Translations under genes and position numbers: made by a program
Virus record (IMG/VR): IMGVR_UViG_3300025765_000001
Strand: one strand, 5' to 3'
Source of the DNA: a virus
Taxonomy: Duplodnaviria; Heunggongvirae; Uroviricota; Caudoviricetes
DNA length: 64,000 bases
Part shown: positions 1 to 46,451 of the stretch, piece after piece
How the letters are laid out: the number at the start of each line of letters is the position of its first letter
How positions within the stretch are numbered: the stretch's first letter is position 1
Notes under the pieces: generated by a model
What the model was told of the DNA's origin: nothing
What the model saw: the letters and a program-made list of their open reading frames with translations, nothing else
Databases searched by the model: none

Positions 1-2
1 TC

Positions 3-698
3 CGGGCCAATTACGCCCACCGTGACAAGATGGTGGAATTGATTCTGGCGGACGTGCAAAAAACCGGTTCTCCGATCACCGATAATCAGGCCAAATCTTT
101 GGTGAACGGCATCTGGTGGAAAAATACACAAGAGAACTACGTTCACTTTGGTGTGGAAAAAGGAAAACTTCAGCACGTCGAAGACGCCATCTCCAACATC
201 ACCAAGGTGTTGCTGAAGACAGGAACTATCAGCAAAGACCCGACAAACGGACAACCAAACCTACTGTACTATCCACAGATTCTCCAACAGATGCAAGCCG
301 TTGGTTTCCATCCTGGCGTGGAGAAGGTGAGGGACGATACAACCACGTTGCCGGTTCTTACACAGAATCAATGGAAGAATTTGCAGCCTGTGGGCACACT
401 AGAGCTTCCACCACTCGTGTTTGCTCGTGGCACAGCCACGATGACCGAGCAGAGTCAGAGAGTGTTGGATGATCTAGTGAAAACATTTAACACATGGCCG
501 CAATACTACTTGGTCATTAAGGGCAACGCATCCCTAGAAGGCGACGTAGACGTAAATAAGGCTCTAGCTACTACCAGAGCCAGGGCTGCTGAGCAATACC
601 TTGTGGAACGGGGCATTAGTCAAAACCGAATCAATGCTACTGGAGAAGCGACCGGCAAAACGTCGGTTGATTTCATTCTCGGCCAACTGCCTTACTAG
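3..698 (+). CDS. C-terminal part of an ABC substrate-binding/OmpA-like peptidoglycan-binding fusion protein (runs off the window start)
   Basis: OmpA_C-like motifs: F-x-x-G...L, 'IKGNAS', 'NKALATTRARAAEQYLVERGISQNRI'. The frame is open from base 3. Confidence 0.7.
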   Translation, partial: RANYAHRDKMVELILADVQKTGSPITDNQAKSLVNGIWWKNTQENYVHFGVEKGKLQHVEDAISNITKVLLKTGTISKDPTNGQPNLLYYPQILQQMQAVGFHPGVEKVRDDTTTLPVLTQNQWKNLQPVGTLELPPLVFARGTATMTEQSQRVLDDLVKTFNTWPQYYLVIKGNASLEGDVDVNKALATTRARAAEQYLVERGISQNRINATGEATGKTSVDFILGQLPY

Positions 699-705
699 GT
701 ATATT

Positions 706-1134
706 ATGCCCAGCAAAACCCAACTAGAAATGATCAAGGAGTTTCAGTGCCCAGGGTGTTCTTGTGGTGTTTACCCCGATACCTGCAAGGCGTTCAAATT
801 CTATGACAACGGCTGTTTCTACTGTGAAGGCTGGCATCCGTCTACCTTTCAGGGTGGTGTAGGTTGGATTGCTCCGAGAGGATTTTGTCGCACCGGGATG
901 GTTGATTTCGGTGGTAAACCTTTTACCTACGTCCGTCTCTAAAAATCGGAGGACATGCCCACCTACGACAAGTTCAATGTTCCGATTTGGGCGATGGAGA
1001 TGGATGGTTATCTCTATGTTCGCTGCTACTTGCTCCGCAACAACTGGCTCTTTGTTGATGTCGTGAAAGGTGGTAAACTAGAACATGCTCCTGGTGCTAT
1101 CGACGCCGGGATGTTCTATAACGATATGGACTAA
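706..1134 (+). pseudogene. Cys-rich hypothetical phage protein interrupted by an in-frame TAA at 940-942
   Basis: MPSKTQ...FQCPGCSCG...YVRL*KSEDMPTYDKFNVPIWAME...; the same frame continues to TAA at 1132-1134. Two adjacent small genes cannot be excluded (GGAGG precedes ATG 955). Confidence 0.5.
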
Positions 1135-1148
1135 TCAACGAGGCTGAA

Positions 1149-1874
1149 GTGGACAAGGAAATCAGGAAGAAGGTACTGCTGGACATTTTCGGCGATCCTG
1201 TGACCCTGATTCCAGTCGTCGGGGGCCTGTCCGCTTTGCTGTTGTCTTGGGCAACTGGCGGTGGAGCGGTCTTGACGTTCTTGGGATTAGGAGGTATTTT
1301 AGGCGGCATTGGATGGCTCGCCACTCGGTTGATTTTCGGTATCGAACAATTAACCGAAGATGCCTATAAGGAGATGCAGCAGCAGAAGGAACAACGGCGA
1401 GAAAGAGAATTGGACGACCTGGATACCAGACTGGTGAATTCAGGCCGAGACCCAAGGGACCAAAATGCTTTGCGAAGCCTCCGTGCGATGGAGGCACAGC
1501 TTCGACAACATCAGAAAGATGGCACCGCTAATTCGATGATAGTTGAGAAGCTAGACGAACTGTTCAAAGGCTGTGTCACCCAACTAAAACACCGTGCCGA
1601 TCTTTACGATACATCGAGATCGCTCAGTGGAGAGCCAAAAAGGAAAGTGTTAGACGAGCGACAGCGGGTGCTAGAGGAGGTCGAGAAAAGTGTCGGTCTC
1701 TACGGCACCAGCATCGAGCAGATGAAAACGCTGAAGCTCAAATCAGACGTGGAAAACCTTTCAGAGAAGCGGGACGAATTGGAACGCTCTCTGGAGATTG
1801 CTAAACGAGTTGAACAGAGGATGTCCGGCATCGGGAGGCCCGACAAAATCTACGACGAATCGGAGTTCCAATAG
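1149..1874 (+). CDS. Membrane protein with two N-terminal TM helices and a coiled coil (partner of the PspA-like gene)
   Basis: Hydrophobic hairpin at ~aa 18-63, then a charged helical region; GAGG upstream. Confidence 0.7.
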   Translation: MDKEIRKKVLLDIFGDPVTLIPVVGGLSALLLSWATGGGAVLTFLGLGGILGGIGWLATRLIFGIEQLTEDAYKEMQQQKEQRRERELDDLDTRLVNSGRDPRDQNALRSLRAMEAQLRQHQKDGTANSMIVEKLDELFKGCVTQLKHRADLYDTSRSLSGEPKRKVLDERQRVLEEVEKSVGLYGTSIEQMKTLKLKSDVENLSEKRDELERSLEIAKRVEQRMSGIGRPDKIYDESEFQ

Positions 1875-1884
1875 GAGGTAACTC

Positions 1885-2721
1885 ATGTTCAGTGCCATCG
1901 GTCGCTATATCCGGGCGTTCTTCTACCTCATCACTGGCCGCATTGATAAGGCCAGGAAGTCTTTGATGAGCAACCCGACCGTCGTAGAGGCGACCTACGA
2001 CAACATCATTGAAGAAAAGGCCGCTCGTTGCCGCCAGTACAAAGATGCCCTTGGCAAAATGGTTGCCAAGGAAGAAGAGAAGAAGGACAAGCTTAGAGTC
2101 CTCGCTACCGGCGACCACAAGGACGCACCGGGCATTCCGTATTATACGAAACTCAAGGCTGGTGCTGCGGCCAAGGCCAGGGAGCTAGTTGCCAAGCACG
2201 GCGGCGATGCCGAGAAGGTCAAATCCGACCCTGAGTATATCAAGTGCCAAGCTGCGTTCCGTGACTTCACTTCCACACTGGAAGAGAAGGAGAAGGCGGC
2301 GAAGGAGCTTGAGGTTGATCTGGCCGAACTCGGCAAGAACATCGGCGGTCACAAGGCCAACATCCAAGGTCTGCTGCGTGATCTCGACAAGCTCAAGAGC
2401 GAGAAACACGAGGCGGTCGCTGACATCATCTCGGCGAAGGAAGAGAAAGAAATCGCCGACATGATTAACGGCATCGCCGAGGACCGCAGTGCCAAGGAAC
2501 TGCAAGAATTGCGTGAACTGCGTCGTGAGGCGAAGGGGCAGGCCAAGGTCAGCCGTGAATTGTCTGGCCTGGATAACAAGGTCGCTGAGGCCGATTTCCT
2601 GGCCTACGCAGAGTCTACGGCGTCTGACAACGAATTCGACAAGCTGATTGGCTTGACGAAGGAAACGCCAGCCGCTACAACACCTGCCTCCACAGAACGT
2701 ACTTCCCTGCCGGAAGCATAA
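1885..2721 (+). CDS. PspA/IM30 (ESCRT-III-like) family coiled-coil protein
   Basis: Amphipathic N-terminus (MFSAIGRYIRAFF), 'SNP..VEA.Y..II', long K/E/A coiled coil, acidic C-terminal 'DNEFDKL'; SD GGAGG. Confidence 0.6.
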   Translation: MFSAIGRYIRAFFYLITGRIDKARKSLMSNPTVVEATYDNIIEEKAARCRQYKDALGKMVAKEEEKKDKLRVLATGDHKDAPGIPYYTKLKAGAAAKARELVAKHGGDAEKVKSDPEYIKCQAAFRDFTSTLEEKEKAAKELEVDLAELGKNIGGHKANIQGLLRDLDKLKSEKHEAVADIISAKEEKEIADMINGIAEDRSAKELQELRELRREAKGQAKVSRELSGLDNKVAEADFLAYAESTASDNEFDKLIGLTKETPAATTPASTERTSLPEA

Positions 2722-2766
2722 CCGGCTGAACGTTGGCTTCTACCCTTTCTCCCAAGGAGTGAGATC

Positions 2767-3837
2767 ATGAAACGGCATCTGATGGTTCTCGGTTTGCTGG
2801 GGCTGTGTGCTGGTGCGTTTCTCTACACTGGTTGCAGCCGCAATGAAGACAAGGGCGGTGGTGACACGCCTTCCTTCACACTGGCGTGGAGCGAGTACCC
2901 TTCCTGGTCGGTGTTCGGCGTGGCCCATGAAAAGGGCCTCATCAACGGCAAGAAGGGCGAACTCGGCACCATTGAGAAGAAATACGGCGTCGATATTGTG
3001 TTGAAGCAGGCCGACTATGATACCTGTATCACGATGTACGGCAGCAACACCGTCGATGCGTCATGCCAGACCAACATGGACAGCCTCTCGCCCAGCTTGG
3101 GTAGACCGTCCGTGGTGATCCTGCCCACGTCTACTAGCGTGGGGGCGGACGCTTGTATCGCCGTCAACGCCAAGGGCGACAAGATCGACTGGCTCAAAAA
3201 CAAGACTGTGTACGGTCTGGAGAAGTCGGTGTCGCAGTATGCTTTCGAGCGATGCTTGGAAATCAACAAGAAGGACAAGTCAGCCTACACCTTCAAGAAC
3301 ATGGACCCCGCTGCCGCTGCTCAAGCGATGCAGACTGGACAGGCCAACATCGAAGCGATCATGGTCTGGAATCCATTCGTGTTACAGACCTTGAGAACTC
3401 GTGACGGTGCCGAGGTTGTCTTCGACAGCAGCATGATCCCAGAGGAGATCATCGACTGCGTTGTAGTCGCCAAGGAGTCGCTAGAGAAGCCGGGCGGTGA
3501 GAAATTCGCTCAGGCCATCTGCGAGACCTACTACGAGGTCTGCAAGATGCTCGAAGACCCAGCCCAGGCCGATGTTACCTACGTTGCTCTAGGGGCCAAG
3601 TTCTCGTCTCTCAACGCCAAGGACATGAAGCTGGTGTGCCAACAGACACGTTTCTACAGCACGCCAAGCAAGGGTCTGACGTTGCTACAAGACAAGAACT
3701 TCCAGAGCAAGACGATGCCGATGATCGTGGGTTTCTGCGAACGCAACGGCATGGTCAAGTCCAGACTGAGCGTGGGTTTCGATGATCCCACCGCCCAACT
3801 GAACTTCACCACGAAGTTCCTGAAATCGGCGAAGTAA
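2767..3837 (+). CDS. ABC transporter substrate-binding lipoprotein (NMT1/SsuA/TauA-like)
   Basis: Signal peptide with lipobox LYTG-C; 'AWSEYPSW', 'STSVGADA', 'VWNPF', 'IPEEIID'; SD AAGGAG. Confidence 0.8.
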   Translation: MKRHLMVLGLLGLCAGAFLYTGCSRNEDKGGGDTPSFTLAWSEYPSWSVFGVAHEKGLINGKKGELGTIEKKYGVDIVLKQADYDTCITMYGSNTVDASCQTNMDSLSPSLGRPSVVILPTSTSVGADACIAVNAKGDKIDWLKNKTVYGLEKSVSQYAFERCLEINKKDKSAYTFKNMDPAAAAQAMQTGQANIEAIMVWNPFVLQTLRTRDGAEVVFDSSMIPEEIIDCVVVAKESLEKPGGEKFAQAICETYYEVCKMLEDPAQADVTYVALGAKFSSLNAKDMKLVCQQTRFYSTPSKGLTLLQDKNFQSKTMPMIVGFCERNGMVKSRLSVGFDDPTAQLNFTTKFLKSAK

Positions 3838-3873
3838 GAAGTAAAGTGCGTCTAGGGGGGCCGCACTTTCTAC

Positions 3874-3908
3874 AAGGCCTGGCCCGAAAGGGCCGGGCCT
3901 TTTTCTTT
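3874..3908 (+). terminator. Intrinsic terminator
   Basis: AAGGCCTGGCCC-GAAA-GGGCCGGGCCTT followed by a T-run. Confidence 0.85.
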
Positions 3909-3953
3909 ACAGATAATTACAAGAAGTATAATGGGCACAAGGAGGTTTTCGAC

Positions 3954-4292
3954 GTGGAATTTGATGGTTTCTGGCGGATGCTATTTGCCGGGCGTCCTGA
4001 TCTGATGCCGCCCGGCGAGGAGAAAATCCGTCTTTCCAAAAAACAGTACGTGGCCGATCTAGAGCGGGCTTGGTATGCTGGCCGTGGTGTGTTTATCGGC
4101 TTCGTGGTGTATTACTACGAAGTGCTAGAAGAAGTCAACCCCGGCCTCAAGGATGCCGAGTATATCAAGTTCACTCAGGAGGCTTACAAGAAGGCGTTGC
4201 GGCGATGCTACGACGTGGGCCAGTCACAAATCCCCAAGGCCCGAAGAAAGACCACAGGTGAAGTGTTTCCGCTCCAAGAAAGAATTCATTGA
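3954..4292 (+). CDS. Hypothetical protein inserted within the ABC cluster
   Basis: TATAAT at 3927-3932 and SD AAGGAGG before GTG 3954. Confidence 0.55.
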   Translation: MEFDGFWRMLFAGRPDLMPPGEEKIRLSKKQYVADLERAWYAGRGVFIGFVVYYYEVLEEVNPGLKDAEYIKFTQEAYKKALRRCYDVGQSQIPKARRKTTGEVFPLQERIH

Positions 4293-4322
4293 GTTCCTCC
4301 GTGGAATGATGTTCAGAAAATA

Positions 4323-5132
4323 ATGGAGCAAGGCATGATCCGGAAACCAATCTCCAAAACCCGCTGGTGGGTTCTCTCGATCTCGGCCATTGCCTTACTC
4401 GTTGCCCTTTACTCATGGATGAGCTACAGACAGAAACAATTCAACGCCAAAGACACCACCATCCCAAACGCACAGCAGTTCGTGGACGGAATAAAAACAC
4501 TACTGAAGCCAGACAGCCAGGGCGACATGTGGTTGCTGATAGACCTGAAGGCGACTTACGGACGGCATTTGTCTGGCATGATGGTTGGTGTTCTCTTGTC
4601 GCTGATCGTTGGGTTACTGATGGGTTGCTTCTACTCATGGGAGGCTGTGTTCAAGTTTCCGCTCACCTGTTTATCCAAAATTCCGCCCACAGCCATGATA
4701 GCTGTGTACTTCGTCTTGTTTGGAACAGAGCTAGAAATGTACATTGCAATGATTGCTCTGGGTATCTTTTCGACTCTGGCTATGGCGGTTTATGGTGCTG
4801 TTCGTAAGGACGTATCAGACCACGCCATCTACAAGGCGTATACACTCGGCGGGTCGGATTCAGAAATCGTTTGGAACGTCGTCTTCAAGCAAATTCTTCC
4901 TAGGTTCATTGAGGCCATTCGTCTCACGGTAGGTCCGGCGATGGTGTTCTTGATTGCTGCGGAGTGGGCGACAGCCGATGTTGGATTTGGCTACCGGCTG
5001 CGTATCCAATCCCGGTTACTCAACATGAACATCGTTTACATCTATCTGGTGATTCTGGCGATCACGACGTACTTCATGGATTGGTCATTGTCTTACGCTC
5101 GTCGTAAACTGTGTCTTTGGTTCGGAGAGTAA
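4323..5132 (+). CDS. ABC transporter permease (SsuC/TauC type)
   Basis: Multiple TM helices, 'IPPTA', EAA-like loop 'KAYTLGGS', 'AAEW...GFGY'. Confidence 0.9.
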   Translation: MEQGMIRKPISKTRWWVLSISAIALLVALYSWMSYRQKQFNAKDTTIPNAQQFVDGIKTLLKPDSQGDMWLLIDLKATYGRHLSGMMVGVLLSLIVGLLMGCFYSWEAVFKFPLTCLSKIPPTAMIAVYFVLFGTELEMYIAMIALGIFSTLAMAVYGAVRKDVSDHAIYKAYTLGGSDSEIVWNVVFKQILPRFIEAIRLTVGPAMVFLIAAEWATADVGFGYRLRIQSRLLNMNIVYIYLVILAITTYFMDWSLSYARRKLCLWFGE

Positions 5133-5133
5133 C

Positions 5134-6060
5134 ATGCCGTTCGCACTCAAGATCGAGGATGTGAGTCATAATTTCGGCGACAACCAAGTTCTGAGCCATG
5201 TCAACCTCAAGATCGGACATGGGCAGTTCGTGGCACTTGTTGGTCCGAGTGGTTGTGGCAAGTCCACCCTGTTCAGGGCGATCCTGGGCACACATCCGCC
5301 ATGCCACGGCAAAATCTTCGCCAACGGTGAAGAGATTCTCCGTCCGAGCCGAGATGTTGGGATTGTGTACCAACACTACTCCTTGTATGATTTTATGACT
5401 GCCGAAGAGAATGTAGCTTTCGGCCCGATGCTTGACAAAACCAATCTGTGGTTTCGGATTTTCCAATTCTGGCAATTCTGGAAAATGTACCGGGGCTGGA
5501 TGCAGGAGGCTCGTGAGCTACTAGACAAGGTAGACCTGGGTACAGCGACCAAGAAATACCCAGCCGATTTGAGCGGCGGCATGAAGCAGAGGGTCGCCAT
5601 TGCCCAGGCCATCATCATGAAGCCGAAGATTCTGCTTCTGGATGAGCCATTCGGAGCATTGGACGAGGCCACACGAGAAGACTTGCAAAAGATGCTTCTA
5701 CAACTCTACCAGGAGAACGTGCGGGCTAGGGACCGAGGCGAGATGCCTCCCTATACCGTCATCCTGGTGACGCATGAGTTAAACGAGGCTTTCTACATTG
5801 CCGAGCGTGTGGTTGGCCTCTCGCAATATCACGGCAACGGATTTCCGGGTGCCACGATTGTTTTCGATCAAATGACTCATGTGTATGCTCCTAACGCCCC
5901 AAGGAATTTTGGCATTTTCTTCGAGCAGAAGGAGCTTCTTCGGAAGGTTGCTTTCGATGACAAGTATCTACCGAAGGGCGATGAGTTCGTGACGTTCTGG
6001 AAAGAGTATGAGAAGCTCCACGGTGTTCCCCACTACAACGGAAAAGGATGCGAAAGATGA
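5134..6060 (+). CDS. ABC transporter ATP-binding protein (NitT/TauT family)
   Basis: Walker A GPSGCGKS, signature LSGGM, Walker B LLLDEPFGALD, H-loop VTH. Confidence 0.95.
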   Translation: MPFALKIEDVSHNFGDNQVLSHVNLKIGHGQFVALVGPSGCGKSTLFRAILGTHPPCHGKIFANGEEILRPSRDVGIVYQHYSLYDFMTAEENVAFGPMLDKTNLWFRIFQFWQFWKMYRGWMQEARELLDKVDLGTATKKYPADLSGGMKQRVAIAQAIIMKPKILLLDEPFGALDEATREDLQKMLLQLYQENVRARDRGEMPPYTVILVTHELNEAFYIAERVVGLSQYHGNGFPGATIVFDQMTHVYAPNAPRNFGIFFEQKELLRKVAFDDKYLPKGDEFVTFWKEYEKLHGVPHYNGKGCER

Positions 6061-42904: not shown

Positions 42905-43153
42905 ATGAGAAACACCATCATGTTCATCATAGGCATGTCTATAATTGTGTTCCTCGGATGGTTTGTTTGTTACGACTACTATCTCTCAATGACTGGCAGT
43001 AGGACGTTCAGTACCGTGGTCTACGACTGGACGCAAGCAAATCTCAAGAAACCCCACGTCCTAATTAGTACCGCCGTCACCATTGGGCTTACAATCGGCT
43101 TCGTGCTTGGCTTCATCCTTGGACACCTTTTCTGGCCGCACAATCCATCTTAG
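42905..43153 (+). CDS. Small two-TM membrane protein (late class, holin-like size)
   Basis: TACATA 4 nt before the ATG; two TM helices; terminator hairpin at 43178-43209. Confidence 0.5.
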   Translation: MRNTIMFIIGMSIIVFLGWFVCYDYYLSMTGSRTFSTVVYDWTQANLKKPHVLISTAVTIGLTIGFVLGFILGHLFWPHNPS

Positions 43154-45381
43154 TGCAAAATGGCCTTTGGTAAATCAAAAAGCCCAGGCCCGCAAGGGCC
43201 TGGGCTTTGTTGATACAACGCCTTGGCAAGCACTTGTTCAAGGTGCTGCACCGCACCAGCCTCGTCCAAGAACAAGCCATCAAGCTGTGCTTCGTAGCAT
43301 TCGCCGATGACCTGTCCAAACAGCGGCCCCGGCTTGAAACCACGGTCGATCAGGTGTTGTCCGCCAATGATCGGCCTTGGTTTTGCAGCCTCAATAGCCA
43401 ATCGCTCTGCGATAGCAGCGATCTCCTTGGCTGGTTCTGGTAGACCACCGGCAAGCGGGGGGCGTCCTGAATGGTCGGCTTCGAGAATGAGCAATAATTC
43501 TTTCATTGTTGCTTTCCCAAGCCGAACAGATAGACGCCGTACCACTCGATCCGTGATCTCGCTGGTGGTCATGCAAATCATATGCTCTGCAACCAGCGGC
43601 AGAACCTTATCTACAATCCTTTGTAGACACCCAATCCTTTCCAAGAATCGGCGAGCTAAAGGTACTCCTACCTCTGCGTGACCCGGCGATCTCCACCTGT
43701 ACGTTGATGAGTGGATTCCTTGTTCTGGCAATGTCTTGCCAAGGTCTTGACAACTTCTATTTTGTCCATTCTCATCAACGTACACGGTGGTCCCGCCGTT
43801 TTGTGGTAGGGCTTTCCCTAAATCGTGGCAGAGAGCCGCAAGTATGATCGTAGCACGATCCTCGCCTTGCAAGCCTTCTCTATCACAGATACGGGCAGCG
43901 GCATCGCATACATGGAGCGTGTGTGTCCAGGCACAACCGATTCTGACTTCAAAACTAGATTTTTCTTCTAGTTTTTGAAGTAGTTCTACTCCATTATAGG
44001 GTGAAGGCAGGTACACAGGAGTAGAACCATGACAGTCAATGCTTCCATTCACTCGAAGGTCGAAGTGAACGAGTACATCACCATCAATGGTAGAACCAGT
44101 CGCATCCACTACAACAAGGGATACGCTTACACCAGTTGGCCTGGGCATAACGGAACCATTGGTGTCCATCGAATCTTGATGGAATTGCACTTGGGGCGAG
44201 AACTCTTTTCCAGTGAGCATGTTCATCACAAAGATGGCAACCGACTCAACAATAGCCTCGATAACCTCGAAATCATTGATGGCTCGATTCACAACCGACA
44301 GCATACAACTCTCAGGAATCTTAAACATGATCCTGATAATTTTACCTGCCTCGATTGCGGATCGACCGAACGACCACACAAGGCTTTCGGGATTTGCGAA
44401 AGTTGTTGGTTCAAACGTCGCCGAAAAACCATCGCCAAGAGACCCTGTGCTATTTGCAGCAGAGAGACCGTCAACGGCACCGTCTATGCCGGGCTTTGCG
44501 GGCGATGTGCCTGCAACAACTGGCATTGCTGCCGACTTTGCAGAAGAACTAGAAAAGAACTTCCGCAAAGTAAAACTCCGATCAACCCTGATGGTTTGTG
44601 TAGAGCTTGCCAAGCGAGAGTTAAACGGAAACTCCAAGAACTTTCGTTCAAGTAGCTCCCATCCTTCCGGGTGCCATTCAGGGTCTTGTGGAACGTCGAT
44701 CAGATTCAATAGCTCTGGGTAGAGCCGAATCCAGCCGCTCTCTACAAGGAATCGAAGGCCCAGAGAAGGAAGTACGCCTTTCAAAGCCCACTTCTCCCAC
44801 TCGCCCCAGATACGCTCAATAGCTAAGGTATCGGCCTCGCAGATTAGCTTCTGGCACATATCAAGCGTTCTAGCATCGGCGATCAGCTTAAACCGGCTTG
44901 CGAACTGGAAGCCCCTCAGCACCCGTAGTGGGTCTTCAGAGAAGTGTTCGCTGATAGCTCGCAATACGCCGTTGAGCAAATCCTGCTTGCCGCCATATGG
45001 GTCTACCAATTGCCCGTCTAACCTCTTGCCGATGGCATTGATGGTGAAGTCACGCCGCAGTGCGGCCTCAGCCGGGGTCATCGTGTGATCGACTTCGACC
45101 TGAAAGCCTCTGTGCCCTCGCCCGGTCTTGTTGTCACGGCGAGGTAGAGAGAAATCGAAGTCTTCATCCTCGGTAGTCAGCTTGATAACACCAAAGGACT
45201 CGCCGACTATGCTCACCTTGCCGAAACGACGCAGTACGATGCACAGAGCCTCGGCACTAAGGCCAAAGACTTCAACATCTACGTCTTTGCTTTCCAGGCC
45301 GAGTAGCTCGTCACGAATACAGCCACCGACCTTGATGGGGTCGCCGCCTGCCGCAACGATGGCTTGTAGGATATGGTTCAT
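43150..45381 (-). CDS. cca: CCA-adding tRNA nucleotidyltransferase with HD domain, carrying a 242-codon in-frame insertion
   Basis: 'VGGCIRD', DxD 'DVDVE', 'RRDFTINA', 'EDPLRVLR', 'PQDPEWHPEG|...|CAWTHT', 'HDLGK', 'EAD', 'PGP.FG'. Confidence 0.92.
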   Translation of the reverse strand: MNHILQAIVAAGGDPIKVGGCIRDELLGLESKDVDVEVFGLSAEALCIVLRRFGKVSIVGESFGVIKLTTEDEDFDFSLPRRDNKTGRGHRGFQVEVDHTMTPAEAALRRDFTINAIGKRLDGQLVDPYGGKQDLLNGVLRAISEHFSEDPLRVLRGFQFASRFKLIADARTLDMCQKLICEADTLAIERIWGEWEKWALKGVLPSLGLRFLVESGWIRLYPELLNLIDVPQDPEWHPEGWELLERKFLEFPFNSRLASSTQTIRVDRSFTLRKFFSSSSAKSAAMPVVAGTSPAKPGIDGAVDGLSAANSTGSLGDGFSATFEPTTFANPESLVWSFGRSAIEAGKIIRIMFKIPESCMLSVVNRAINDFEVIEAIVESVAIFVMNMLTGKEFSPQVQFHQDSMDTNGSVMPRPTGVSVSLVVVDATGSTIDGDVLVHFDLRVNGSIDCHGSTPVYLPSPYNGVELLQKLEEKSSFEVRIGCAWTHTLHVCDAAARICDREGLQGEDRATIILAALCHDLGKALPQNGGTTVYVDENGQNRSCQDLGKTLPEQGIHSSTYRWRSPGHAEVGVPLARRFLERIGCLQRIVDKVLPLVAEHMICMTTSEITDRVVRRLSVRLGKATMKELLLILEADHSGRPPLAGGLPEPAKEIAAIAERLAIEAAKPRPIIGGQHLIDRGFKPGPLFGQVIGECYEAQLDGLFLDEAGAVQHLEQVLAKALYQQSPGPCGPGLFDLPKAILH
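43936..44661 (+). mobile_element. 726-bp homing-endonuclease element inserted in inverted orientation in cca
   Basis: Removing it restores HPEG-CAWTHT; it contains an HNH ORF and terminal hairpins. Confidence 0.8.
44029..44655 (+). CDS. HNH homing endonuclease (HNH_3/I-HmuI-like) with C-terminal Cys-rich Zn-finger repeats
   Basis: 'VHRILMELHLGREL..SEHVHHKDGNRLNNSLDNLEI..H..H'; several CxxC pairs; SD AGGAG within a 10-bp stem. Confidence 0.9.
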   Translation: MTVNASIHSKVEVNEYITINGRTSRIHYNKGYAYTSWPGHNGTIGVHRILMELHLGRELFSSEHVHHKDGNRLNNSLDNLEIIDGSIHNRQHTTLRNLKHDPDNFTCLDCGSTERPHKAFGICESCWFKRRRKTIAKRPCAICSRETVNGTVYAGLCGRCACNNWHCCRLCRRTRKELPQSKTPINPDGLCRACQARVKRKLQELSFK

Positions 45382-46451
45382 CTCGGCCTCCTATTTTTAT
45401 CCTTCCTCTTGACACGCCTGCGGTCTTCTGGGTTCGGGTCATCTAAATAACCCCTTCTTCTGTGAAAGAAAAGGGCCTGCGGCCCCGTAGGGCCAACCAA
45501 AGTTTGTCGGCTAGTTCAGGGTGTTTGGCAACAACAAGATCGCTTCCGTTGATCGTCCAACGCCTGTAATCACCATCGGCTTCATCGAAGTCTTGTTCTT
45601 CGTAAGCCTTCGCCATCCTCTTCTGCCGTTTGGTTAATGCCAACTTCCAACCTCCAACCTCCGATCAATGTTCGGCCTGTAGGCCACGCCGACGCAGGAA
45701 TTCACGAATCAACTGGTCAGGGGTTTCGATACCGTGTAGCGTTCCGCCTTGCTCGACAATCGTGGTCGCCATCGAGCTTACGGAGTAGGTACAAGGGTTG
45801 TCGCCCTCGTGATCCTGCACCACGATGAGGAAGCACCGCTTGCCCAGCTTTTTTACTAACGTCTGGACTGGCGAGAACAGTTGCTTGAAGCCCACGGCAT
45901 CGCACATGTAGTAGTCACCGGTATCGGCCTTTTTCTTGTACGAAGCCGTTGGCCTCTCCGTGTGGAGACCAGTTCTCACCCTGCATCTTGGCGAAAGCAT
46001 CATTGATGTCGTTGGCCTTGATGTGCGTGCGTTCGGGCCTGTCGATATCAGGCAGGGCATTCTGTTCTTCCAGAAAGGCATACCCCATGATGCCGTCACG
46101 GAAAAAACCGGGCGACATATACCAGACATGGTATTCGGTTGTGCCGTGGTTCAGGCCAGGAAATTCGCTCAGCTTCACGATTGGTCCTCCTCTGTTCACA
46201 GCCATCTAGTAATGACCAGATAAGCAAAGATAGCGATGCCGATGAACGGCAGGGCGATCAGCAGGATCAGAAGTCACAAGCGTAGCGTAGTCGTCCTCGG
46301 CCCCGCCGCTCATCGTGAATCCTTGGCCCGCATCTTCTTCAGTTCCGTCACTCCCGCTTACCTTCGATCAGGTCATCGATGCTCTTGGCATCGAGAGTGA
46401 GAAACTCAGCCATGTCAGACCCTCGTGTGGTTGAGGCATGGAGCGTGCCGG

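Follow-up and report, generated by a model that had tools for sequence, protein, structure and literature searches.

In a 64,000-nucleotide stretch (hereafter the window) of the IMG/VR virus record IMGVR_UViG_3300025765_000001, a jumbo phage genome of 435,946 bp and 50% GC, the gene for a class II CCA-adding enzyme (cca) carries a 726-bp insert whose own gene, encoding an HNH endonuclease of 208 amino acids (aa), lies on the opposite strand. Comparison with related loci makes it probable that this insert is a frame-preserving, inverted, 'hidden' HNH homing element that the Cca protein tolerates as a translated loop. To account for it, an intron, an intein or a ribosomal bypass is unnecessary. 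A first-pass annotation, made from the letters of the window alone, had described an insertion that was neutralised in its host gene while being neither an intein nor a recognisable intron, and had proposed that its antisense frame was selected. All that it states about the sequence holds good. Its core proposal is supported here, and of the four mechanisms then offered, only the tolerated antisense-encoded loop is backed by evidence. The parts of the locus are as follows.

43150..45381, minus strand: cca, class II CCA-adding enzyme with HD domain, a 743-aa open reading frame (ORF) including the insert (Pfam, AlphaFold2); PolyA_pol head at residues 18-141 and HD domain at residues 485-607 (Pfam)
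44662..45381, minus strand: N-terminal part of cca, residues 1-240, head and neck, ending ...WHPEG (alignments; predicted local distance difference test, pLDDT, >90)
43936..44661: mobile insert, 726 bp or 242 cca-frame codons (empty-site comparison, patchy distribution, GC)
43150..43935, minus strand: C-terminal part of cca, HD, body and tail, beginning CAWTHT (HD residues invariant; pLDDT >90)
44029..44655, plus strand: HNH homing-endonuclease gene, 208 aa (Pfam HNH_3, in antisense codon register with cca)
43936..44028, plus strand: HNH leader, 93 nt, stop-free in the cca frame (AGGAG at 44017-44021)

The limits of the insert are given by an empty allele. The closest insert-free relative (protein P0004 on locus L157) is 86% identical to the window Cca and reads CAC CCA GAA GGT TGT GCC TGG across the site. 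The window reads GAA GG[A TGG GAG ... AGA ATC GG]T TGT GCC, which leaves a 2-nt GG ambiguity at the boundary and makes the insert exactly 726 nt long. The reported splitting of cca between HPEG and CAWTHT is thereby confirmed. Further, the insert differs in composition from the cca exons (47% against 54% GC). The head, the HD domain and the overall fold of a class II CCA-adding enzyme are all present, as judged by Pfam and by structure matches, and the ORF list bears out that the cca frame runs without a stop through all 242 insert codons. There is no start codon at the C-half junction of the window cca, and the half carrying HD, body and tail can therefore be obtained only by read-through.

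On the other strand, the endonuclease matches Pfam HNH_3 (PF13392) with an E value of 8e-10 and 38.6 bits against a cut-off of 24.8, in agreement with the 208-aa gene in codon-to-codon antisense register that had been described from the letters. Residues H64, H66, H67, N74, N75, N79, H88, N89 and H92, together with the zinc-finger residues of its CxxC motifs, are invariant in the HNH alignment. By tblastn it is 32-39% identical to HNH proteins of the ShiLan type and of phiKZ. The gene ends in a stop codon 6 nt short of the insert edge. In every gene-call list examined, the long host ORF alone was called and the HNH gene was missed. No second copy of the HNH gene or of the insert occurs in the 436-kb phage genome, the cca region has no blastn match in the phage collection, and the HNH profile has no match among PDB sequences.

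The codons of the endonuclease carry the argument that its mirror frame is selected. Among the 16 Leu and 13 Ser codons of the window HNH there is no TTA, CTA or TCA, the three codons that mirror stops, while CTA makes up 16% of Leu codons in the genome and the three together 2.7% of all codons genome-wide. The first-pass annotation had pointed to this absence, and it was right. For the window HNH alone, local codon usage gives a probability of about 0.002 of finding no mirror stop, and a wholly open antisense frame is found in 2 of the 112 ORFs of similar length in the phage genome.

The relatives make the case decisively. Loci were retrieved from the HNH side through an HNH protein alignment, a retrieval that is independent of the cca frame and avoids gene-caller bias. 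All 16 full-length HNH relatives lying within cca are antisense, in register and open throughout the insert, in loci whose GC content ranges from 0.33 to 0.62; thus none of these homologous inserts contains a stop or is out of frame. The 16 loci hold 14 distinct HNH ORFs, every one intact. Every cca-borne HNH lacks TTA, CTA and TCA altogether, where the codon usage of the respective locus would predict 2.2-13.4 of them per gene. At the two AT-richest loci the probability of this absence is 6.5e-9 (L094) and 7.4e-9 (L098), and over the 16 loci the log10 probabilities sum to about -52, a figure that ignores kinship between the lineages. By comparison, a free-standing relative that is 48% identical (L005) has three such codons where 3.1 are expected, and 104 HNH_3 relatives found elsewhere average 7.8. 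Across lineages the insert ranges between 221 and 248 codons in length, always in whole multiples of three. Judged by these counts, the stop-free cca frame is certainly under selection, the codon avoidance is significant and the observation lies far beyond chance.

The free-standing HNH used as a control (L005:2483-3190) is on the same strand as its flanking genes, one for an RNA ligase and one for an HD plus kinase protein. The N terminus of the latter bears an H(A)EG..HT motif resembling the cca target, and the locus may represent an intron-less homing arrangement that adjoins its target.

The insert-bearing form of Cca recurs. When the 743-aa ORF was used as a protein query, the matches included many insert-free Cca, about 455 aa long, and, among the 120 listed, 24 Cca clusters of 675-715 aa that align through the insert. 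The site is identical in these clusters, and identity of the host protein falls as low as 40%. The cca-frame peptide of the insert is represented in 43 clusters (50% identity) among 1.84 billion representatives, of which about 33 are full-length read-through proteins. One candidate for a truncated form, P0149, was rejected, as its frame in L193 and L194 is open to the contig edge. The element is also found in a cellular chromosome: a Blastocatellia copy (L158) has the same arrangement, again open.

On a Cca tree made without the insert columns, presence of the insert requires at least six changes, at least three of them forced by strongly supported branches. The insert-bearing P0002 is sister to the empty P0004, and P0017 and P0018 are nested in an empty clade. 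Identity of the HNH to the window copy does not follow the identity of the host: the Blastocatellia HNH is 67% identical to that of the window while the two exons are 47% and 37% identical, and for L094 the corresponding values are 62% for the HNH and 37% and 31% for the exons. This patchy pattern fits repeated homing, loss or both, as read from the tree.

Of the two overlapping frames, only one appears to be conserved as a protein. Mean pairwise identity between lineages is 0.56 in the HNH frame and 0.33 for the cca-frame peptide. When HNH codons were reshuffled synonymously while avoiding mirror stops, a cca-frame identity of 0.268 was predicted against 0.316 observed. Additional selection on the cca-frame peptide was considered and rejected: four-fold sites are still 40% identical between lineages, so leftover common ancestry covers the small excess. 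On this comparison, the cca-frame peptide is a passenger, constrained only to lack stops. The host enzyme downstream is another matter. Its HD catalytic residues are intact, which counts against a dead domain: H487, H519, D520, H568, H600 and D636 show no variation among the 62 aligned Cca, 24 of which bear the insert. By this measure, selection still acts on the half of cca that follows the insert.

A structural prediction of the read-through protein points the same way. In an AlphaFold2 model made with a 62-sequence alignment, both Cca halves have pLDDT above 90 and the predicted template-modelling score (pTM) is 0.74. Most of residues 241-482 fall at pLDDT 24-50, apart from two islands of 50-75, which face the best-conserved stretches of the HNH. 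Over residues 1..723 the model matches the solved structures of the class II CCA-adding enzymes 3wfq, 6qxn and 1miv, with a Z score of about 26. In the model, then, the two halves assemble normally, and the insert is predicted to loop out at the boundary between neck and HD domain.

The Blastocatellia copy bears on whether such an enzyme works. It is a 695-aa insert-bearing cca on a 1.93-Mb contig of the metagenome-assembled genome (MAG) JAXLQP01, its neighbours are sucD and ordinary chromosomal genes, and it is the sole PF01743 match in the 8.2-Mb genome. Transfer RNAs without an encoded CCA end need a CCA-adding enzyme, and 16 of the 30 Blastocatellia tRNA genes outside a tRNA array lack one, among them those for tRNA-Phe, Lys, Glu and Pro. 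From the sole cca and the tRNA genes without CCA, we infer that the insert-bearing enzyme of this bacterium is active. A dense array on L184 of this MAG (746-749 kb) holds at least 27 tRNA genes, 24 of them without encoded CCA.

From these observations we propose the following course of events. An HNH gene would invade the conserved cca site that encodes HPEG/D(C)VWTHT in inverted orientation, most likely by homing, as its patchy distribution suggests. Each HNH codon would then stand opposite one cca codon, with selection purging TTA, CTA and TCA and holding all insertions and deletions to multiples of three. Ribosomes on the cca mRNA would traverse the insert and make Cca as a single 743-aa chain, whose native halves would fold as a normal CCA-adding/HD enzyme while the 242 foreign residues form a mostly unstructured loop. 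The HNH protein would be made from a separate antisense transcript, presumably with its own Shine-Dalgarno box. The genome that carries the element would be protected from cleavage, as the insert splits the target site of the endonuclease, in keeping with the known behaviour of homing endonucleases. The fate of the loop after translation and the mode of HNH transcription are the parts of this scheme that we infer rather than observe.

Several observations weigh against this proposal. The insert peptide is rather hydrophobic and, with the two islands of intermediate pLDDT, it is perhaps no simple inert loop. The functional argument from the bacterium depends on a MAG, which is possibly incomplete or mixed. 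In the phage that argument is weaker still, as a second PolyA_pol-family ORF makes cca perhaps dispensable there; this 504-aa ORF lies in the same genome outside the window (397051-397533), and the phage may thus have two tRNA nucleotidyltransferase-like enzymes. On the contig of P0141, cca is apparently split within the insert, as seen at protein level only. Another split cca is found on L191 (699-5651) and L192. Here the N half, the mirror ORF (233 codons, stop-free within the HNH coding sequence) and the C half occupy three frames; neighbouring ORFs share 4 nt and 13 nt at their ends, with an ATG placed exactly at the C-half junction. This suggests that the insertion site tolerates even a break in the chain.

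The L191 and L192 sequences have further peculiarities. The contig is apparently that of an actinophage, with a WhiB gene upstream, and the N half also bears a LAGLIDADG-type insertion. The mirror frame is called as an ORF of its own (216 aa), with 4 nt in common with the gene before it and 13 nt with the gene after it, and the HD half extends from its ATG at the junction into a protein of more than 800 aa.

The split layout is a reason to consider that the mirror frame is kept open for ribosome transit. As such a 'bridging ORF', it would keep ribosomes moving over the antisense cassette and bring them to the downstream half, and would guard the cca mRNA against Rho-type polarity, decay or pairing with the HNH transcript; fusion would be incidental and the halves possibly separate chains. 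The open mirror frame may thus serve transit in addition to fusion, or in place of it, and this is a real rival, although we consider it unlikely. The three-frame layout occurs in one lineage only and could be a recent frameshifted derivative. The window cca and about 33 clusters keep the insert and both halves in a single frame, and their C half lacks a start; in those loci the fusion protein must therefore be made. Insert length, for all its spread (221-248 codons), also keeps to multiples of three, which speaks against transit. A different possibility is that the read-through product is only a precursor, from which some undescribed step, whether excision of the loop from the protein or cutting and rejoining of the RNA by the RNA-repair enzymes encoded close to cca, restores a normal Cca. 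We think this rather improbable; if true, inverted homing endonuclease genes would possess a new kind of splicing system, to which the stop-free mirror frame would belong. Removal after translation in particular, by atypical protein splicing or by proteolytic clipping to give Cca of normal length or in two fragments, has in its favour that processing of any sort at the protein level requires an open frame and that the split form suggests a dispensable chain connection at the site. However, intein nucleophiles are lacking. In 12 of 14 lineages the insert opens with W, and single lineages have S or C there instead; it always closes with G. The position that follows it is occupied by Asp in most lineages, Cys occurring only where the empty allele carries it too. 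The downstream Cys to which the first-pass annotation had drawn attention is present in the window, but it belongs to the host, since the empty allele also reads HPEGCAWTHT. There is no Pfam match to a HINT or intein domain, and no such fold in the AlphaFold2 model of the whole protein. A peptide that is nearly unconstrained beyond the HNH frame is also hard to reconcile with a catalytic role. We hold atypical splicing and clipping to be improbable.

Excision at the RNA level, through an unrecognised intron or by phage RNA repair enzymes that cut and rejoin the transcript, would leave the open frame to some other cause. RNA ligase genes do lie near cca in the related contigs L003 and L005, and the ambiguous GG boundary allows an insert ending in G. 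Against this, an Rfam scan of 43000-45600 at E values up to 10, which covers the families that Rfam holds, finds no family matching the insert, with only weak sRNA-like matches at the downstream terminator hairpin (43179-43208); a gathering-score scan of 12 related loci finds tRNAs only. The non-coding parts of the insert total about 30-115 nt, too short for a ribozyme. The upstream exon ends ...GAAGG, with no U before the insert and no GUGYG, and the junction hairpins are not conserved. Splicing would also remove the need for a stop-free frame, yet the frame of 242 codons is strongly selected, and we regard excision and ligation as very improbable. Long-range bypass between Gly codons, after the manner of T4 gene 60, was suggested by the Gly codons that flank the insert in the window and the hairpin after the first of them. 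Only 4 of 14 lineages have the same Gly codon at both junctions, however, and no stop follows the take-off codon. A significant take-off hairpin is seen in just 2 of 14 lineages, ribosomes would have to cross 726 nt rather than the 50 nt of gene 60, and a bypass has no need of an open frame. We give it almost no credence. The same applies to chance or decay, by which the open frame would be accidental and the 743-aa product a dead enzyme. Open antisense frames do occur (in the 2 of 112 phage ORFs of similar size mentioned above), but the 16 cca-inserted loci and the Blastocatellia copy are open without exception, even at 33% GC, the HD residues do not vary, and the sole cca of a bacterium that needs CCA addition bears the insert. 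The tolerated, translated loop thus remains our preferred explanation.

The leader of the HNH gene holds two smaller features.

43946..43953, plus strand: conserved 8-mer ACTT[C/G/T]AAA near the leader edge, where the cca frame reads F-E/Q-V
43946..43981: leader hairpin (folding; lineage-specific), the second of the two hairpins described in the first-pass annotation

The 93-nt leader is stop-free in the cca frame, as had been claimed, and its AGGAG box stands 7 nt ahead of the HNH ATG; in other lineages the leader measures 24-108 nt. The 8-mer is found in 8 of 14 lineages, and its Phe codon is always TTT, including in GC-rich loci. In L004 the leader reads TTGAAA-N17-TATAAT-N7-ATG. The 8-mer is a candidate -35-like signal for the antisense HNH transcript; we label it a candidate only, because a sigma-70 scan of the window HNH leader gave no promoter. 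The whole 93-nt leader, hairpin included, has a folding energy of -29.5 kcal/mol. Both junction hairpins described earlier do exist in the window (z of about -3.3 against shuffles), but as a significant pair they are confined to the window and its close relative L085. The 3′ hairpin alone is significant in L089 and L004, and in 10 of 14 lineages neither junction has a significant hairpin. As a feature of the family, the hairpins were rejected.

Elsewhere in the window cca there is a second in-frame insertion (43698-43784) of 24 residues (72 nt) that is missing from all relatives. Its residues sit between the arms of a perfect 14-bp inverted repeat, TGTACGTTGATGAG / CTCATCAACGTACA, which are 59 nt apart, and the genome holds no other copy of the repeat. 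The insertion resembles a small palindromic element that the HD domain tolerates. The final ~20 cca codons (43150-43210), also missing from relatives, traverse a terminator-like GC hairpin (43179-43208, 13 bp) before the stop.

To our knowledge, homing endonuclease genes are thought to persist in essential genes only by means of introns, inteins or gene splitting. The present case is strong comparative evidence for a third route of survival, in which the selfish gene lies on the opposite strand, purged of the codons that mirror stops, and the host protein bears it as a loop. The codon signature, with no TTA, CTA or TCA even at 33% GC, provides a simple genome-wide screen, and such elements may account for long 'unknown' inserts in annotated proteins. 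Presence of the insert in the sole cca of a bacterium with tRNA genes that lack CCA argues that the enzyme tolerates about 230 arbitrary residues at the boundary between neck and HD domain, which is useful for protein engineering. The locus is also a natural example of two genes that overlap fully in antisense, where selection acts on the protein read in one frame and requires of the other only that it be free of stops.

Several known systems resemble the element in part. Inteins with homing endonucleases are likewise in frame at a conserved site, translated with the host and mobile by homing. The element in cca differs in that its endonuclease is outside the translated insert, the nucleophiles and terminal HN are lacking, no HINT domain or fold was found by Pfam or in the AlphaFold2 model, and the insert is apparently retained. 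Rickettsia palindromic elements, reportedly described by Ogata et al. in 2000 as inserted in frame in protein genes, are also selfish DNA tolerated as a translated segment; they are said to be ~100-150 bp long and non-coding, with no homing endonuclease genes. The interruption of T4 gene 60 shares the Gly codons and a hairpin at its edges with the window copy only, and its defining signals are missing or unconserved across a gap of 726 nt rather than 50 nt.

Among HNH genes in phages, the group I intron-encoded endonucleases I-HmuI and I-PfoP3I (PMC3428280) also interrupt a conserved phage gene at a conserved site. In the present case no ribozyme was found, the HNH gene is antisense and the host frame is open, whereas introns normally contain early stops. 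Free-standing homing endonucleases that split genes, as in nrdA/mobE of Aeromonas phage Aeh1 (PMC3045599) and mob/seg of T4 (PMC2988022), similarly place an endonuclease gene within a host gene with neither intron nor intein, and L191 and L192 represent such a split cca. The host gene in the window is unsplit, a single ORF, and its endonuclease gene is inverted.

The closest parallel is the ShiLan domain, a hidden HNH insertion in the mycobacteriophage DNA methylase gp65, with a stop-free host frame, no intron or intein features, a poorly structured product and the HNH in another frame of the same strand (Gosselin et al. 2023, PMC9957025; Arsenault, Gosselin & Gogarten 2025, PMC11855218). In both, an HNH flanked by zinc fingers occupies a conserved site of the host gene; host-frame stops and intron or intein signatures are absent, the product is predicted to be a poorly structured loop, and distribution is patchy among close relatives. 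The endonucleases are homologous: by tblastn the window HNH matches the methylase genes of ShiLan, Starcevich and Mantra, with 32-35% identity over residues 20-146 (~125 residues) and E values of 4e-7 to 4e-8. The novelty that the first-pass annotation had assumed is lowered by these homologous same-strand insertions, published in 2023 and 2025.

Same-strand hidden HNH genes like that of ShiLan also occur elsewhere among the retrieved loci: in a 1693-aa ORF without a Pfam match (L007:181-5259), in a 1759-aa ORF with a His_Phos_1 domain (L103:1-5277) and in a C5 cytosine DNA methylase (L143:892-2190). Antisense cases exist outside cca as well. On L057, an HNH_3 gene (2369-2836, plus strand) lies antisense and in register inside a host ORF of more than 1731 aa (2-5194, minus strand) that stays open and has a GGDEF-like match and a HEAGH motif. 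On L018, a giant phage ORF of more than 1715 aa with a ddrB-ParB domain (2-5146, minus strand) stays open over an antisense, in-register HNH_3. In these antisense cases the host translation shows a mirror string, ...VDMMNML..., of the kind predicted by the first-pass annotation.

The element in cca is nonetheless a variant of the ShiLan type and not a member of it, because its HNH gene is on the opposite strand in codon register; the ShiLan HNH, as confirmed here, is on the same strand in another frame. The host is cca, interrupted at its HD motif, rather than a methylase, and the element is also found in a bacterial chromosome. A literature search for HNH genes in cca found no paper, and the ShiLan paper PMC11855218 contains neither codon-avoidance statistics nor an antisense case. 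Relative to ShiLan, what is new here is the antisense codon register, the cca host, the occurrence in a cellular chromosome and a quantitative demonstration of selection.

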